Source: Candidatus Velthaea sp.
Lineage (GTDB): Bacteria > Vulcanimicrobiota > Vulcanimicrobiia > Vulcanimicrobiales > Vulcanimicrobiaceae
Direction of reading: 5' to 3'
DNA: 64,000 nt
Assembly: GCA_050012475.1 (NCBI GenBank)
Contig: JBEKHC010000039.1
Span: forward strand, 1-64,000
In this document: positions 3,001 through 15,000 of the stretch, piece after piece
Numbering within the stretch: the first letter of the stretch is position 1
How the letters are laid out: each line of letters opens with the position of its first letter
Program-made: the position numbers

Positions 3001-6000
3001 ACGAGACTCTTGATAACGGCCACGTCGAGCTGAGTACGGCTGCCGTCGGACGCAGTAAACGTAAGTTGAGACACAACCTTGCCCTCCAATCAGCTGAGCT
3101 AACGATCCCGAGAATCGACTAGACGCCGTCAAATCGCCGGCTTGACCCATCGTTGGACAACCGCCGCGAACGTGACGACTATGAGATCAAGGCCAATCGT
3201 GTTCCGCCGTACGAACGCAACATAATTGATTCAAGTCCGCGTTGCGAACGTCGCTCCCGAGTTGCGCTTCGAAGTACATCGGCAGTCGCCCCGACGCTCA
3301 GCCGAAGCGCTCGATTGCAACGTTTTCGGCCGCAGCATTTGGTGCGCCCGACCAACGGCATCGCCACGCTGGCGACATAAATGGCGTCGCCGGCGAACGA
3401 TGCATCACGACGCCGGAGCAATGTTGCATTGGACACGCAGAACCTCGACAAATCTGCTACGTCACAGCAGCCAGGGGAGAAGCGTGGCCTGAGCTCTCAA
3501 ATTGTACTGCGGCCGTTTTGCTCCGGCAACGGAATAGAGGCCGTTCGCTTGCTTCAGTCGGCATTTGGCGCCGCTGGAATGTATTCCGCCGCGTTAGGCC
3601 GCGCGTCGTCTCTCGAGCCTGCGAAGGAAACAGTGTTGCCCACGACTTCGCCCACGCCGCGATCGAATGGTGGAATTGCCCGGGTTGGCTCCGTTGCACG
3701 CTTCCGTGCAGCGCGGCCTGTGCGGCAAGTGATGCGTTACGCCCTTTGCAGGCCCTCCGATTTCTGCCGTCGGGGAAGCAGGCGATAGAATTCCACTCGT
3801 TCGAGTGTCATCGTACCCTCACCGACCATCTCGTCGATCCGCGGAATCACCTGAGCAATCTTTTCTTCCGTGTCGACGACTTCGATGAGGATCGGGAGAT
3901 CGCCGCGAAACTGGAAGATCTTTGCCACGTGAACCTCATGCATCGATCCGCCAAAGCCCTCGATGCCCCGGAACACTGACGCGCCGGCGACTCCTTCGTG
4001 CCGTAACACCTGTACGATCGCGGTGTAAAGCGGGCGGCCGTGCCACGTATCGCTCTCGCCGACAAAGATACGCAAGAGTTGCCCTACCGTAAATGCACCC
4101 ATGCCGTTACTCCACTGAATCGAAAGCAATCGCGGCCGGAGGATCCCGCGTTCTCTGGAATATTAGTTGGTATTTCGGATTCTTTTCTGCTTCGGTAGGC
4201 GCCGGTTTCGCAAGCATAATCGGCGTACCATCGCGGGCTAATGCCAGTATACCCCCGCGAAAGCAAAGCGTACACCTGCCCTCGCAAGTCGGTGATCTTC
4301 GCTCTTCGGGAACGAAGAGTCGCTGGAGAGCGATCTAGGGGTCACCGGAGATAGGGCGAAATCAGGAACTCGCGGACCGTAAGGAACTCGATGGATGTTG
4401 CGATGTTGCGGACCGGCTCAGGCCGATACAACGTCGGAAACAGCGACTGCGCTCGTGTGCGCGCCGGTCGGTGTCCCGCATAGGCACGGTGCGCGCTGCG
4501 CCCCTCGACTGTTCCTGAGGCGTACTGTCGAGTATCGTTTTCAACAAGCCGATTCGCCGGCAACACCCACGGAGTCCGGAGCGGGACGAACGAATGAAAA
4601 TCGAGCATAACGGGACGCTCATGCGAATCTACGTCGCACAGAGTCAGCACCGTAACCATGCGGATGTCCACCGGTTGATCATCGAAGCACTGGCTCAGGC
4701 GAAGATATCCGGTGCCGTTGCTTTTCTCGGCATCCAGGGCTACGGTAGACATAACTATATCTCCAGTGCGAATACGGTTGATGCCTTCGTAGATTTACCG
4801 ATCCTCATCGAGGCTGTCGACGATGACGACAAGATTCGAGCATTCATACCGAAGCTCGAATCAATCCTCGAGGACGGACTGGTGACGCTCGAGCGACTGC
4901 AAACGATCTTCTATCGTGTTGGCGACGTCGCCGACTGAATGCAGCGATCTTGCGCCCGCTGCCCGAGCTATGATGGCGGAGGTGATTTAGCGACGATAGA
5001 TAAACGTTGCGTTCAACGGGGATGGGGCCCACCCGAAACCGCCCAGTTTGGGCTGATGGCTCCTGCGTAATAGCGGGAGCATGGCCAATATGCAGGCGCA
5101 CCGGACGCAGGAACAGCAGGGCGGCAGGGGTCGTTCACGCGGCGTCTTGCGGGACGAGCAGATTCCTGATTTGGCCGCCGCATGAGGCTCTCGCCGTTCG
5201 CCATCCAGACCGCCCAAATCTTCACCGTCGTTTTCGTGTCACCATTGTTGACGGGTCTCATCGCTCGGGCGGAGGCGGTCGTCGCCGGTAAACGCGGGCC
5301 GTCCATTTTTCAGCCCTACCGCGACATCGTCAAATATCTTCACAAGCAACGCGTGAAGCCCAGCCCGTCGTCGTCGATCTTTTCTATTGCGCCTTACGTC
5401 GCGTGCGGGTGCTACGTCACGGTCGCGACGCTCATTCCGGTCTTGACGACCTTTCCGCTGCCCGGCGCAACCTACGGCGATATTCTGGGAGGAGCGTTCG
5501 TGCTCGCGCTCGCCGGGTTTGCAACCGCCGTTGCCGGCCTCGATTCAGGATCGCAGTACACGAACATCGGCGCGAGTCGGGCGACGATGGTTGGAGTCTT
5601 CGTCGAGCCAACGCTTATATTCGTTTTTTTCTCGGTTGCCTATATTACCGGAACCGATCTTCCTTACGCGATGAACGCGGCGCTGAGAAGTTCTGCCGTT
5701 GACGTACTGCGTCCGGTCCATGTACTTGGTTTGGCTGCATTCTTCATGATGCTGCTGGTCGACACGGGCCGGATCCCGATTGAAAGCAGCTCGGCAACCA
5801 TCGAATTCGGAATGATCGACGATGCGCGGTTATTCGAGCATAGCGGACCCGAGATGGGCTTGTTCAAATGGGGCTCGTCGATGAAGCAGTTCTTGCTGTA
5901 CACGATCTTTGTCAACGTGCTGTTTCTGCCCATGGGCCTCTCCTCCGACGGCGAGCTCGCCTCGGTCATTCTCGCGATTGTGCTTTTGTTCTTGAAAATG

Positions 6001-12000: not shown

Positions 12001-15000
12001 TGGGCGTAACGATCGTGATTGCCGCCTGCGCTTTTGGAATCATCGTCCGCCTGATTCCAAGACCCGCAACCAAAACCGAACAGCCTTGGACGAGCGGCGC
12101 TGCGTACGCCCCCTGGACCCAATACACCGGTACCGGATTTGCAAATCCGACCCGCGTCATCTTGCACGCCGCGGTGCGCACCGTGCGCACAACCTCGGGC
12201 GACGTCTTCGATCCGCACAGCGTGGCAAGTGAATATGACAGCGTCAGCCGTCAATTCTTCGATTTACCCAATGCAATCGCGATCGGAAACGCGTTTTTAA
12301 GTATCGCAGCAATCGTTCGCCGAACGCAGTCGGGCATTATCGCGGCCTATCTCTCATATATCCTGGCATTTGCGCTCGCCGTACTCGTTCTCTATCCCTC
12401 GATTCGGCACTGGTAACGGGCGGCGGCAGAACCACGCCGTGCCCGCCCGAGGCTATGAGATCACCAAATGCCATCCGCGCGAGTTCATCGCGTCCGGCGA
12501 CTATGTCGTGGCCCTGGTGACCATCGCCGGGCATCCGCGCGAAACGCCGACCGTCGCTCAGAGAACGGTTGACAGGCCGGCTGACATGCTGGTACGGTAA
12601 ACTCCCATGAAAGGTCAGATGATGTGCGCGGTGGTTTGTTGTTGCCCAACTGGGCTCCGGCGACGTTTCGCATTGGACTGACGCCGAGCGTCAACCCGCC
12701 TGTGAAGCCCTCGCCCCAGCCGGCCGAGGGCTTTTTTCTTTCCCGTCTTTTCGTATGTAATCAAGGAGAATCTCCCAATGAGCCTGGATCGACGCTCCTT
12801 CATCATCGCGGGCGCCGCGGGAACAGCGACGGTGCTGGTGCCGCGAATCGCGCGCGCTGCCGCTCCCGACCGCATCGCGCTCGACTATGCGTATTACAAT
12901 CCCGTCAGCCTCATCCTCAAGCAGAGCGGGTGGCTCGAAGGCGAGCTTGCGAAGCGCAAGACCGGCGTCGATTGGGTACTTTCGCTGGGCTCGAACAAGG
13001 CAAATCAGTTTTTGCAAGCCGGCGCCGTCCAATTCGCCTCGACGGCAGGCAGCGCCGCGTTTCTCGCGCGAGTCAACGGCACGCCGCTGCATACCGTCTT
13101 CCTTTACTCGCAGCCCGAATGGACGGCATTGGTCGTAAGCAAGGACAGCCCCATGGCAACGGTGCGCGATCTCAAGGGCAAAAGAGTCGCTGCGACGCGC
13201 GGAACGGACCCGTGGTTCTTCCTTTTGCGCTCGCTGCGCGAATTCGGGCTGGATGTCGCCGACATTCAACTCGTCGATTTACAACATCCCGATGGCCGCA
13301 TCGCACTCGAACGCGGCCAGGTCGATGCTTGGGCCGGACTCGACCCGCACATGGCGGCCTCGCAACTCGACGCCGGCTCCAAGCTGATCTACCGCAACGT
13401 CGCGTTCAACACGTTCGGTGCGCTCAACGTGCGCGAAGACTTCCTGCAAGCGCAGCCCGGGATCGTCGATGTCGTCCTGCGGGGTTACGACCGCGCTCGC
13501 CAGGCCGCACTCGCGAATCCCGATGCGACCGCGCAAACACTCGCGACCGCATCGAACGTCGAACCGCAAGTCGCGCAACTGGTGATTCGCGAGCGCACGA
13601 AATTCCCTGATCCGACACCCGGCCGCGCATTCGCCGATGCCATCGCCGGCGTCGTCCCGATCGTGCGCGCGGAGCATCTGACCGCCGCCGGCGCCGACCT
13701 CGACGGCGCGGCCGCGACGCTCGCCGAAGCTCGCTACGCCCAGGCAGCCGCAAAAGCGTGAAGTTCGTCGTCCCGATCGCGCTGGTGGTCGCGTGGTTCG
13801 CCGCGACTTCGACGGGCGCGATCAAATCGTACCAACTCGCCTCACCGCAAGCCGTGCTCGTCGAGCTGAACGATCTGGCCTCGCGCGGTCTGCTCTGGAC
13901 GGACCTCGGCGCGAGCCTCGAGCGCGTCGCGACCGGCTTCGCGCTTGCCGCGATGCTCGCGATCGTCCTCGGATCGCTGGTCGGCGCTTCAAGGATCGCG
14001 GAAAAGCTTCTCGATCCGACTTTACAGGCAATACGTTCGGTGCCGTCGCTCGCTTGGGTGCCGTTGTTGCTGTTGTGGCTTGGAATCGGAGAGACGGCGA
14101 AGATTGCGCTGGTCGCAATCGGTGCGTTCTTCCCGATATACGTTGCGCTGGCATCGGCAATCCGCAACGTCGATCGAAAGCTGGTCGAAGTCGCGCGCGT
14201 GCTCGGCGTGCGCGGGTTGCCGTTCATCGCGCGCGTGCTTCTGCCGGCGGCGCTGCCGCAACTGCTGGTCGGCTTGCGGATCGGCTTGACGCAAGCGTGG
14301 CTTTTTCTCGTCGCCGCGGAATTACTCGGCGCCTCGCGCGGTCTGGGATTTTTGCTCACTGACGGCCAGCAAATTGCGCGCACGGATGAGATTCTCGTCG
14401 CGATCCTTGCTTTTGCGATCTGCGGCAAACTCTCGGAGTCCGCAATGCGATTGCTCGAGCGGCGTCTGGTGGGCTGGACCGATACGGTGGTCGCACGTTG
14501 AACGCGATTACGATTCGCGGCTTAGTGAAGCGCTACGGCGCGCATATCATTTTCGACGGCCTCGATCTCAACGTCGCGCACGGCGAACGGCTGGCCGTGC
14601 TCGGGGCCAGCGGGTGCGGAAAGTCAACGCTTTTGCGCTGTATCGCGGGCCTCGAATCGTGGGAGGGTGGTGAGATCAGCGTCGCCGGCGAGATCGGCTA
14701 CGTTTTCCAGGAGCCCCGGCTGTTCGGTTGGCTCGACGTGGAGCGTAACGTCGCATTCGCGGCCCGGAATGCCGAAGAGAAAGCGCGCGTACCGGAGGTG
14801 CTGGCCCTCGTCGGTTTGACCTCCGCACGGTCCAAGCTGCCCAAGCACCTTTCCGGCGGGATGGCGCAGCGAGCGGCTCTTGCTCGCGCGCTGATCCGCA
14901 AGCCCGAGATATTGCTCTTCGACGAGCCCTTGGCGGCGCTCGACGCGCTCACGCGGCTCGAACTGCGGGCTTCGTTGCGCGAAATCCTGATCCAAGCGCG

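Follow-up and report, generated by a model that had tools for sequence, protein, structure and literature searches.

Probable fluoride riboswitch control of an Ehr-type complex, related to group-4 hydrogenases but without [NiFe] ligands, in Candidatus Velthaea sp.

Introduction

What does the fluoride riboswitch of Candidatus Velthaea sp. control, a formate hydrogenlyase or something else, and what would its product do for a cell exposed to fluoride? "Formate hydrogen lyase" genes have been linked in print to this riboswitch (the crcB motif) since 2010 (PMC2864571), and they again figure among the genes under its control in a 2024 review, where Na+/H+ antiporters are given as the second commonest riboswitch-linked class (PMC11139923). 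An earlier survey of the genome had read the operon behind the switch otherwise, namely as an ion-pumping complex of the Ehr (energy-converting hydrogenase-related) type that does not evolve hydrogen. We analysed the window, a 64-kb stretch of DNA carrying switch and operon, together with related loci. Ehr complexes reportedly received their original description in 2013. Two papers give their function as unknown (PMC6349859, PMC10284858).

The riboswitch and its expression platform

5009–5072, plus strand: fluoride riboswitch aptamer (RF01734, 47.3 bits, E 5.6e-10)
5060–5079, plus strand: expression platform hairpin, CUCCUGC (5060–5066) pairing with GCGGGAG (5073–5079)
5081–5185, plus strand: possible leader ORF of 34 codons (31 from ATG 5090), by translation

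In the Rfam scan the aptamer matched the model over its full length (1–64 of 64) and well above the gathering score of 34 bits; its P1, P3 and pseudoknot strands are canonical, and no Rfam family other than RF01734 matched in the window. R1, a model built in this analysis, scores the same site at 64.7 bits. A second site was found in the contigs neither with the Rfam model nor with R1, whose next-best match had an E of 0.44; the single riboswitch of the survey is thus upheld, read as the sole one found, since the assembly, a MAG in 204 contigs, is 93.8% complete. Most riboswitch copies upstream of hyfC contain an extra hairpin between P1 and P3.

The survey had left the expression platform unmodelled. 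Within a 192-nt fold, the 3′ tail of the aptamer forms the hairpin listed above with a strand that holds a Shine-Dalgarno (SD)-like GGGAG; pairing between tail and SD occurs in 51 of 60 loci versus 15% of shuffles, and the stems show compensatory changes. Because of this pairing, interpretation of the platform as an SD-sequestering translational ON switch is well supported, and fluoride would free the SD. The TGA of the possible leader ORF overlaps the ATG of hyfC (ATGA); in the closest locus (L003) an ORF runs from the same GGGAGCATG up to just before hyfC, the two peptides being dissimilar, so that two sequences speak for such a leader.

A six-gene operon

3737–4129, minus strand: DUF190 gene a, 130 aa (PF02641, E 1.3e-36)
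4594–4938, plus strand: DUF190 gene b, 114 aa (PF02641, E 2.1e-25)
5182–6135, plus strand: HyfC/NuoH-like membrane subunit, 317 aa (PF00146, E 1.2e-32)
6142–6807, plus strand: HyfE-like membrane subunit, 221 aa (NF008556, E 2.2e-17)
6804–8249, plus strand: HyfF-like antiporter-type subunit, 481 aa (PF00361, E 7.9e-49; NF005044, E 1.2e-114)
8246–9646, plus strand: fused NuoC-NuoD/HyfG-HycE-like "large subunit", 466 aa (PF00329 and PF00346)
9643–10398, plus strand: HycF/NuoI-like ferredoxin domain (residues 4–119) fused to a NuoB/HycG-like domain, 251 aa (PDB and NCBIfam matches)
10401–12416, plus strand: HyfB-like antiporter-type subunit, 671 aa from GTG 10401 (PF00361, E 1.5e-41; NF005086, E 1.7e-107, full length)
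12370–12600, plus strand: small ORF, the seventh gene of the survey (no family match)

The genes from hyfC to hyfB all lie on the plus strand and are joined by 4-nt ATGA overlaps or gaps of 2–6 nt; an alternative hyfB start, GTG 10347, would overlap the preceding gene. In 72 loci the riboswitch is followed first by the gene for HyfC, and the position of the hyfE-like gene is conserved in 70 of 80. The latter gene product, previously regarded as a protein without family, gave no match in the Pfam scan; it does align end to end (residues 13–221) with positions 9–216 of 216 of NCBIfam NF008556, the hydrogenase-4 membrane subunit HyfE, at a score below the curated cut-off. Of the seven genes originally proposed six are conserved; for the seventh, a 53-aa ORF, tblastn against 160 related loci returned nothing below E 0.4, which is why we count six genes and regard this ORF as probably no gene of the system.

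The two DUF190 genes, noted earlier as lying just upstream of the operon, are upstream of the switch as well, and neither is under it, since gene a is on the minus strand, divergent from the operon (it has a 72%-identical paralogue on contig C38), and gene b, on the operon's strand, ends 70 nt 5′ of the aptamer. As also reported before, crcB is found on another contig (C106:1437–1823, minus strand) with no riboswitch detected beside it there, and a scan of ORFs over the 64 kb showed no formate dehydrogenase (FDH) or hyp families.

Lost metal sites

The fused NuoC-NuoD protein contains cysteines at positions 184 and 278 only, and neither [NiFe] site has a CxxC, versus CAAC and CYAC in the genome's own paralogue on contig C28 and versus E. 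coli HycE (7z0s_E), the best solved match (E 7.2e-41). The CGIC of HycE aligns with SGAT, the C-terminal CxxC is replaced by IQAE, and both pairs are missing in all 119 close relatives. The survey had thus been correct about the absence of these motifs, and its question of whether riboswitch-linked complexes elsewhere also lack them can be answered: they do, in 26 of 26 hyfC-first metagenome loci as well as in the 119 relatives.

The ferredoxin–NuoB fusion protein matches MbhJ (6cfw_J, E 3e-30), HycG (7z0s_G, E 6e-27) and HycF (7z0s_F, E 3.9e-5), its N-terminus also NF009053 and TIGR01971. Here C51, C70, C73 and C76 form one four-cysteine site, retained in 75 of 78 sequences; it is the only [4Fe-4S] site conserved in the window's branch (Eremiobacterota, Thermoleophilia and Acidimicrobiia), the first ferredoxin motif being gone. 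The CxxCxxC previously assigned to the NuoB-like subunit does exist, but it sits in this fused HycF/NuoI-like N-terminal domain, and the cysteines of the NuoB-type (proximal) cluster are missing: the four ligands have become D, E/C, A and A (positions D127, E/C130 and A224 among them). Acidic and histidine residues at the former cluster site (D127, E131, E133, H121) are at least 93% conserved. Loss of the NuoB-type cluster and of one of two ferredoxin clusters would leave no electron wire to the former active site, which makes redox catalysis there unlikely. In the sister clade, by contrast, none of the three Fe-S clusters has been lost (the four NuoB-type cysteines are kept in 24 of 25 rows), a hint that the ancestral function was redox-coupled and maybe still is in those lineages.

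As all four [NiFe] cysteines and the proximal-cluster cysteines are absent and one [4Fe-4S] site is left, there is good support for placing the complex with the Ehr-type, [NiFe]-less kin of group-4 hydrogenases and not with the H2-evolving formate hydrogenlyases, in agreement with the survey's finding.

Conservation of the linkage

Among related loci of Eremiobacterota and Actinomycetota, 72 include hyfC with 300 nt or more of sequence before it, and in 72 of 72 a fluoride-riboswitch element precedes the gene; a covariance model detects 67 of these elements, and 5 were recognized by eye. With R1, 59 of these gave plus-strand hits (E ≤ 0.01) within 450 nt, four lay 550–620 nt upstream, four were weak (E 0.013–0.089), and the rest are the five recognized by eye. 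Rfam's own model placed RF01734 3.1–3.65 kb upstream, on the same strand, in all eight of 61 family genomes that bear an orthologue (at least 57% identity), or seven of seven without the unpublished genome G051; these genomes probably overlap with the genomic loci, and related genomes are non-independent samples. In the sister clade, the 26 hyfC-first metagenome loci all carry the element, 24 of them within 700 nt and the other two being L138 and L143. It is absent from all 16 hyfB-first loci, of which 11 encode true CxxC...CxxC enzymes and 5 encode other forms without the cysteines, nor was a switch found at the genome's own [NiFe] paralogue or at its NuoD. Many of the hyfC-upstream elements fall below the Rfam gathering score: five of the eight family sites have less than 34 bits, and only three of nine Actinomycetota elements tested pass. 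The tree leaves both options for the two riboswitch-linked clades, one clade or separate ones. Fluoride control of the complex as a conserved trait, not a chance juxtaposition, is well supported by this recurrence.

These loci also contain further switches, which drive genes for NUDIX, MutS-like, pyrophosphatase and phosphoesterase proteins. Within 1.5 kb 3′ of hyfB, crcB is found in 12 of the 70 genomic loci and in 10 of the 16 from metagenomes (after a 40-nt gap in L037, with a Usp gene between in L056); DUF190 genes lie 3′ of hyfB in 14 of 70 and 11 of 16, respectively.

Comparison with known systems

For all six subunits the best NCBIfam and PDB hits are those of E. coli hydrogenase-4 (Hyf: HyfC, HyfE, HyfF, HyfG, HyfH-HyfI, HyfB) or formate hydrogenlyase-1 (Hyc, 7Z0S: HycE, HycF-HycG), all scores being far below curated cut-offs. 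Unlike Hyf and Hyc, the complex has neither [NiFe] nor proximal-cluster cysteines, fuses HycF to HycG with one cluster site kept, has the gene order C-E-F-G-(HI)-B, and comes without genes for HyfA/HycB, HyfD, FDH, Hyp proteins or a protease. Pyrococcus MBH and MBS (6CFW, 6U8Y) are similar in that, among solved structures, the NuoB-like domain matches MbhJ best, with MbhL and MBS subunits matching too; the [NiFe] site and proximal cluster of MBH, however, are both absent here.

With Ehr complexes it shares kinship to group-4 large subunits, absence of the Ni/Fe ligands, and complex-I-like and Mrp-like membrane subunits. Within this group, the clade described here is set apart by hyfC-first order, an E(A/H)SFG...DR C-terminus and the fluoride riboswitch, which the five hyfB-first Cys-less loci lack; the window's branch has additionally lost two Fe-S sites. 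The aptamer and the neighbouring NUDIX, MutS-like, pyrophosphatase, Usp and crcB genes are those of the fluoride regulon; what differs is a platform that would sequester the SD instead of forming a terminator, and a controlled "formate hydrogenlyase" which is not one.

Proposed function and its alternatives

With two Proton_antipo_M subunits, a small one of the NuoK/HyfE kind and one like NuoH, the membrane part resembles both the Na+/H+ antiporters of the Mrp type and the complex I membrane arm (E. coli NuoM, 3RKO); unlike Mrp, it keeps a NuoCD/NuoB-like cytoplasmic cap. Equivalents of the TM7 lysine and the TM12 glutamate are conserved in HyfF and HyfB, and K215 and E389 of HyfF, which align with NuoM K234 and E407, are at least 93% conserved. 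Where NuoM has its central TM8 lysine (K265), HyfF has Ser/Asp; the proton path is therefore not fully canonical.

Our preferred reading, with a rough probability of 0.55, is that the riboswitch acts as a translational ON switch for a six-subunit, Hyf-derived proton- or cation-translocating module. Without fluoride, the aptamer tail would pair with the SD-like strand; with fluoride, the tail would be held in the pseudoknot and ribosomes could load, in the window probably on the short leader ORF coupled to hyfC. HyfC, HyfE, HyfF, the NuoCD-like protein, the HycF–NuoB fusion and HyfB would then be made, a complex incapable of making or using H2. In acid soil or peat, HF would leak in and Fluc (CrcB) would let F− out, a cycle that drains the proton motive force (pmf); H+/Na+ translocation by the complex would most likely help to hold cytoplasmic pH and membrane potential. 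We infer this role from the conserved antiporter-type residues and from the genes near by (crcB, DUF190, Usp); equally inferred are that fluoride induces the operon in vivo and that ions are moved, in which direction and by what driving force. Strict conservation of one four-cysteine site, for which a purely secondary transporter would have no obvious need, speaks against this reading.

That site would make sense in a redox-driven ion pump, the reading implied by the survey, in which electrons from a donor, ferredoxin for example, would enter at the remaining [4Fe-4S] cluster and reduce an acceptor, driving an export of H+ or Na+ that rebuilds the pmf under fluoride. The two ferredoxin clusters and the NuoB-type cluster of the riboswitch-linked sister clade fit such a pump, as does the general view that Ehr complexes couple redox reactions to charge translocation (PMC6349859). 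We nevertheless consider it rather unlikely in the window's branch: with NuoB-type ligands and first ferredoxin motif gone no cluster bridges to the NuoD-like pocket, the pocket is devoid of [NiFe] cysteines, and no gene of the conserved operon would provide a donor or acceptor module as its partner.

Still less probable is a scaffold or regulator working physically with Fluc and DUF190, or a pocket remodelled (D127, E131, E133, H121) for new acid-base or metal-fluoride chemistry. Conserved hyfB-crcB-DUF190 synteny, the persistence of two DUF190 genes beside the operon although crcB has moved to another contig, and the conserved acidic and histidine residues are in its favour; yet 58 of 70 genomic loci have no crcB within 1.5 kb after hyfB, and the antiporter-type Lys and Glu argue for ion translocation. 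Loss of the [NiFe] ligands and of two of three Fe-S sites could also mark a decaying relic of a hydrogenase-4/formate hydrogenlyase operon that came to lie behind the riboswitch by chance, which is very improbable given six frames in the same order in 72 loci of two phyla at 30–80% identity, dozens of invariant charged residues, retention of the riboswitch in every one of these loci, and tblastn layouts in which frameshifts or stops in many orthologues were not seen. A working formate hydrogenlyase or hydrogenase, through which fluoride would shift metabolism towards formate disposal, is hardly credible, for although relatives are named "formate hydrogenlyase subunit 5" or "Ni,Fe-hydrogenase III large subunit" in sources, the 2024 review treats the riboswitch-linked genes as formate hydrogenlyase (PMC11139923) and a formate-THF ligase gene is under a neighbouring switch in three loci, none of the four [NiFe] cysteines and no proximal-cluster cysteine is present, FDH and hyp genes are absent from the window and from the conserved operon, and none of the 11 true CxxC-bearing enzymes in the same searches has the riboswitch.

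What the fluoride literature calls "formate hydrogen lyase" is probably the riboswitch-linked Ehr clade, an equation we did not find stated in the literature searched; what would be new is limited to this re-identification and to the delimitation of the genes as a clade. Recurrence of the pair, fluoride switch and complex, in several bacterial phyla provides an orphan family of complexes with its first physiological context.

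The fluoride aptamer and the operon behind it

The match to Rfam's fluoride riboswitch model (RF01734) at 5009-5072 of the plus strand covers model positions 1-64 of 64 with 47.3 bits, against a gathering score of 34; nothing else in the 64 kb scored above an Rfam threshold. In this aptamer AUGGGGCC pairs with GGCUCCU as a pseudoknot and the CUGAUG core is present; among the related loci the pseudoknot strands covary (GGAG:CUCC in 39, GAAG:CUUC in 7, GAGG:CCUC in 2, plus others). It is the one RF01734 match in the assembly, a metagenome-assembled genome of 204 contigs and 93.8% completeness, and a covariance model of our own, built from 20 published family aptamers, found no second site there, the next match having an E-value of 0.44 (150 of about 4200 candidates scored). 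With both models, the fluoride riboswitch upstream of the operon is the only one found. Behind it come six tightly packed genes that either overlap by ATGA or stand 2-6 nt apart:

Genes downstream of the aptamer
5182-6135, plus strand, HyfC/NuoH-like protein
6142-6807, plus strand, 221-aa membrane protein, HyfE-like
6804-8249, plus strand, HyfF-like protein
8246-9646, plus strand, NuoC-NuoD fusion (the large subunit)
9643-10398, plus strand, NuoB-like protein (a fusion)
10401-12416, plus strand, HyfB-like protein

The survey's finding had been a seven-gene operon with two DUF190 genes just upstream, crcB on another contig without a riboswitch, and neither formate dehydrogenase nor hyp genes beside it; as a whole this observation holds, with small corrections. 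Six genes are conserved, but the seventh, a 53-aa ORF after hyfB, has no counterpart in the related loci in which one was sought. The 221-aa protein, said to be without family, indeed has no Pfam match but aligns end to end with the NCBIfam HyfE model (E = 2.2e-17, below the cut-off). The DUF190 genes are there, one on each strand, and because both are upstream of the aptamer they stand outside the control of the switch. The only crcB of the source genome follows a same-strand formiminotransferase gene at a distance of 35 nt (both within G000:C106:1437-2706, locus L193); this crcB has no fluoride switch and is apparently expressed without fluoride sensing. No gene for formate dehydrogenase, a hyp protein or the endopeptidase turned up in the scanned ORFs of the 64 kb or in the conserved operon of 72 loci, to which the search was confined.

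Elsewhere in the window, 12778-15169 and 21571-40583 carry many genes of organosulfur assimilation (NMT1-type binding proteins and ABC transporters, a luciferase-like monooxygenase, two FMN reductases, PALP enzymes and NlpA lipoproteins), and 40588-46130 is occupied by a corrinoid methyltransferase set:

Corrinoid methyltransferase set
40588-42288, minus strand, RACo-type activator
43322-44527, minus strand, URO-D/MtaA-like protein
45471-46130, minus strand, B12-binding protein

DNA near-identical to 4400-12600 occurs in soil and peat metagenome runs of several studies, and four of the runs contain at least half of the sampled words; all are DNA runs, and the source sample may be among them, whereas no RNA run was listed for this stretch.

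Loss of metal ligands from the complex

The large subunit is homologous to the large subunits of group 4 [NiFe]-hydrogenases (HycE, E = 7.2e-41; MbhL, E = 6.3e-27) and contains none of their four [NiFe] cysteines. Its only cysteines are at 184 and 278; aligned to the source genome's own group 4 large subunit on contig C28, which has CAAC and CYAC, the four ligand positions are S, T, I and E, and CGIC of the solved E. coli HycE (7z0s_E) aligns with SGAT. The absence of the cysteine motifs noted in the survey is therefore real, and the two CxxC pairs of a [NiFe]-hydrogenase or formate hydrogenlyase are missing. Neither pair is present in any of 119 relatives (35-87% identity), six of which have an isolated single cysteine; in a library clustered at 50%, all four cysteines are likewise missing from 115 of 154 aligned rows. 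NuoD models give the large subunit 149 bits against a cut-off of 360, and the N2-type cysteines are absent from the NuoB-like protein. A group 4-homologous large subunit without Ni/Fe ligands, co-encoded with NuoH-like, NuoB-like and antiporter-like membrane subunits, is what defines complexes of the energy-converting hydrogenase-related (Ehr) type, and the window's operon has both features.

The NuoB-like protein is a fusion, residues 4-119 of which match HycF/NuoI (7z0s_F, E = 3.9e-5; NF009053, TIGR01971) and residues 100-242 MbhJ and HycG. The four cysteines that hold the proximal [4Fe-4S] cluster in MbhJ/HycG align with D127, C130, A194 and A224, and the four-cysteine set of this group 4 cluster is not present; at least 93% of 78 sequences have Asp at position 127, and 60 have Glu at position 130. 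The CxxCxxC motif attributed to the NuoB-like subunit is kept but belongs to the fused ferredoxin part, the NuoB-type cysteines having been replaced. In the ferredoxin part, only C51 plus C70-x2-C73-x2-C76 remain (75 of the 78 sequences), which we take to be one cluster by the usual 2x[4Fe-4S] topology. Because the proximal-cluster and the other ferredoxin cysteines are gone, the protein can hold at most one Fe-S cluster, with no wire to the former active site, and the predicted loss of two clusters argues against a redox drive in the window's branch. A sister clade from metagenomes differs in having kept both ferredoxin motifs and, in 24 of 25 rows, the four NuoB-type cysteines; this three-cluster clade and the cluster retained here argue that redox chemistry was once part of the mechanism, and may still be elsewhere.

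With neither [NiFe] nor proximal-cluster cysteines, and no formate dehydrogenase or hyp genes nearby, the earlier view that the complex does not evolve hydrogen is supported. That it is not a hydrogenase is well supported and generalises to a definable clade.

Conservation of the link between switch and operon

A pattern scan with one genome per species yielded 80 loci, 22 of the Eremiobacterota type and 58 from Actinomycetota, the latter mostly Thermoleophilia with some Acidimicrobiia. The order hyfC-hyfE-hyfF-nuoCD-fusion-hyfB is kept in all loci with enough DNA; in locus L027 the operon is split into nuoCD plus the fusion gene (4085-6983) and hyfC-hyfE-hyfF-hyfB (8355-13266), each behind its own riboswitch-model match. 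Our model produced 148 matches at E ≤ 0.01 in the window and the 80 loci. In 72 loci hyfC is present together with 300 nt or more of DNA before it; a plus-strand match lies within 450 nt before hyfC in 59 of them, and 550-620 nt before it, with a small unassigned ORF between, in four; four more have weak matches (E = 0.013-0.089), and the remaining five have none, P1, AACC and AAUGA-CUCCU elements nevertheless being visible by eye in all five. Four Eremiobacterota loci carry an ORF of 100-154 aa without Pfam family between riboswitch and hyfC (L007:3356-3817, L013:3476-3859, L016:3441-3740, L023:3355-3780).

Within the family, an orthologue (at least 57% identity) is encoded in 8 of 61 genomes, and in all eight an RF01734 match lies 3.1-3.65 kb upstream on the same strand (7 of 7 without the unpublished genome G051); these genomes probably overlap with the 80 loci. 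Weaker paralogues (30-37% identity) and the NuoD genes of the same genomes have no switch nearby, except in genomes G053 and G034. In these two, a shorter NuoD-only homologue (31-33% identity over residues 112-466; G053:C3:2270055-2271113, G034:C23:169218-170291) has a fluoride match about 3.6 kb upstream and may be a second riboswitch-linked form.

Metagenome contigs were scanned with more distant Cys-less proteins and the same model was run over the loci found. The 42 with hyfC and upstream DNA fall into two architectures, 26 hyfC-first and 16 hyfB-first. A switch lies within 700 nt in 24 of the 26 hyfC-first loci; in L138 it precedes the operon, and in L143 it stands before a crcB gene that is followed by hyfC. 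The [NiFe] cysteines are missing from all 26 (AERVSG..., EASFGL..AG.DR), which, with the 119 relatives, answers in the affirmative whether riboswitch-linked complexes of other groups have lost them, a point that the survey had left open. None of the 16 hyfB-first loci, which comprise 11 true CxxC...CxxC enzymes and five other Cys-less forms, has a riboswitch-model match anywhere in the locus. NCBI names within the sister clade are Rhodanobacter, Dyella mobilis, Rudaea, Stellaceae, Xanthobacteraceae and Caulobacteraceae. A quick maximum-likelihood tree, in which support is by SH-aLRT only and the branch to the NuoD outgroup is very long, sets the switch-less group apart (99) and recovers the metagenomic (100) and genomic (99) clades; since it resolves neither how the two riboswitch-linked clades are related nor the position of L112, it lends no support to their single origin. 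Control of the complex by fluoride, as predicted from the position of the switches, is well supported and extends to the clade so defined.

Aptamer variants and expression platform

In most Actinomycetota loci the hyfC-upstream aptamer is enlarged by a hairpin, roughly 15-45 nt long, which is inserted after P1 and before the AACCGCC segment (for example in L026, L029, L037, L045, L058 and L080, at about 3430-3760 in each). A non-canonical 5′ core, at first assigned to 40 of 66 hyfC-upstream elements, was rejected because the model had placed P1 on this inserted hairpin; when a further 45 nt of preceding sequence was included, 61 of 70 had a P1 of canonical type with an AUGGAG loop. The span from P1 to CUGAUG is at least 27 nt in 56 of these 61, as opposed to 6 of 63 other switches in the same loci. 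The P1-P3 insert accounts for low Rfam scores: three of nine Actinomycetota elements tested reached the gathering score and six fell below it, so that the threshold misses most Actinomycetota copies and automated regulon surveys undercount the link between switch and operon. A paired change, GAUGG to GGUGG with CUGAUG to CC(A/G)AUG, is present in 11 of the 61 elements versus 2 of the 63 other switches (L004:3785-3865, L009:3800-3880, L018:3839-3919, L012:3668-3743, L024:971-1053, and others) and looks like covariation of a tertiary pair. The window's aptamer has neither the insert nor the paired change.

No terminator was found on the plus strand between aptamer and hyfC or after hyfB (3600-5300 and 12300-12900 scanned), and the same stretches contained no promoter-like site. 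The 3′ tail of the aptamer can pair with a Shine-Dalgarno-like AGGAG that precedes the start codon by 8-14 nt; the stem sequences vary by lineage with pairing kept (CUCCUGACAAU/AUUGUCAGGAG, CUCCUUUCGCG/CGCGAAAGGAG, CUCCUAUCUC/GAGAUAGGAG), and RNAfold predicts the pairing in 51 of 60 loci; after shuffling of the downstream segment the mean is 15%. Fluoride would lock the tail into the pseudoknot and free the Shine-Dalgarno sequence; we infer an ON switch that probably acts at the level of translation. In the window, 5060-5066 pairs with 5073-5079 as a hairpin, and hyfC starts 110 nt after the aptamer, compared with about 30-45 nt otherwise. An ORF of 31-34 codons spans this gap, its stop codon overlapping the hyfC start, and in the nearest locus (L003) the corresponding position is taken by an ORF without peptide similarity to it; these two sequences point to possible coupling through leader translation in the window.

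Fluoride context of the operon

Of 70 genomic loci, 12 have crcB, often in two copies, on the same strand within 1.5 kb after hyfB, and 14 have DUF190 within 3 kb; of 16 metagenome loci, 10 have crcB and 11 have DUF190 so placed. All four counts are lower bounds because proteins of the source genome itself served as queries. Only 40 nt separate hyfB from crcB in L037, and a Usp gene stands between the two in L056; neither locus has a switch there.

Other switches in the 80 loci precede NUDIX hydrolases, MutS-domain-V proteins, inorganic pyrophosphatase, calcineurin-like and PAP2 phosphoesterases, DUF6062 proteins, ABC and MFS transporters and, in three loci, formate-tetrahydrofolate ligase. 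The latter, a real formate-related enzyme, is encoded directly behind a riboswitch and divergently from the hyfC operon, and DUF6062-related proteins stand directly behind riboswitches in Actinomycetota:

Genes directly behind other fluoride riboswitches
L051:1538-3238, minus strand, formate-tetrahydrofolate ligase
L072:1779-3485, minus strand, formate-tetrahydrofolate ligase
L064:1835-3520, minus strand, formate-tetrahydrofolate ligase
L075:13081-14433, DUF6062-related protein
L077:12152-13348, DUF6062-related protein
L040:225-974, DUF6062-related protein
L061:1892-3286, DUF6062-related protein

Some relatives have "fluoride islands" of 4-7 riboswitch matches in about 10-25 kb (G032:C6:367166-382893, G024:C1:3458275-3483855, G013:C4:1558587-1574784, G053:C3:2263390-2266417), compared with the one switch of the source genome.

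Proposed function and significance

HyfF K215 aligns with K234 of E. coli NuoM and E389 with E407; the equivalents in HyfB, K219 and E403, are conserved, and the NuoM K265 position is Ser/Asp in HyfF. HyfF and HyfB thus resemble MrpA/MrpD-type subunits with a TM7 Lys and a TM12 Glu/Lys, the residues taken to be functional in antiporter-type subunits. The operon differs from an Mrp antiporter, a full MrpA-G set without a cap, in its NuoCD-/NuoB-like cap, and none of its six genes is an MrpB, E, F or G gene. Several buried acidic residues of HyfC and HyfE are kept at 93% or more across two phyla.

A 2024 review states that HF, entering as a weak acid, drains the proton motive force and makes the cytoplasm acidic, and ranks Na+/H+ antiporters second in frequency among the classes linked to the riboswitch (PMC11139923). 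Given this published view, the operon partners crcB, DUF190 and Usp, and the occurrence in soil and peat, the best reading, and a reasonable one, is that the complex would act as a proton/cation translocator in pH and proton motive force homeostasis.

The association of the riboswitch with these genes is old: a 2010 paper names "genes encoding formate hydrogen lyase" under control of the crcB motif (PMC2864571), and the review reads them as formate oxidation in fermentation (PMC11139923). The Ehr papers note that the CxxC motifs are missing, and either state the function to be unknown or propose complexes of formate dehydrogenase with Ehr (PMC6349859, PMC10284858). No link of Ehr or Cys-less complexes to fluoride was found in the library searched; the gene families may already be listed more precisely in the supplementary material of Baker et al. 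2012 (Science) and the 2013 Ehr paper. What appears new is that the genes form a dedicated Ehr clade, how this clade is set off from true hydrogenases, the loss of Fe-S clusters in the window's branch, the translational platform and the operon link to crcB and DUF190.

The "formate hydrogen lyase" of the fluoride regulon could be one dedicated [NiFe]-less Ehr clade, a fluoride-stress machine that ranges from Proteobacteria (Rhodanobacter, Dyella) to Actinomycetota and Eremiobacterota and often shares an operon with the Fluc channel and DUF190. In one branch of it, including the window's, two of three Fe-S clusters would have been shed while the riboswitch stayed in control; we hold this reading tentatively, at a probability of about 0.35. 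It would correct the view of these genes in the fluoride field as evidence of a shift to formate fermentation (PMC11139923). A conserved, ligand-specific switch names the condition under which its genes are needed, and the function of an Ehr clade therefore becomes testable; NCBI-named relatives are available in cultured organisms (Vulcanimicrobium alpinum, Rhodanobacter and Dyella mobilis). The series from three clusters to one under the same switch offers a system for the role of a complex-I-like cytoplasmic cap without electron transfer. Ehr complexes are common in genomes and are stated to have no known function (PMC10284858). If the reading is true, a complex-I-type scaffold would serve fluoride resistance without redox chemistry, as an ion translocator linked to the proton motive force and working with Fluc, and an Ehr complex would for the first time have a physiological role.
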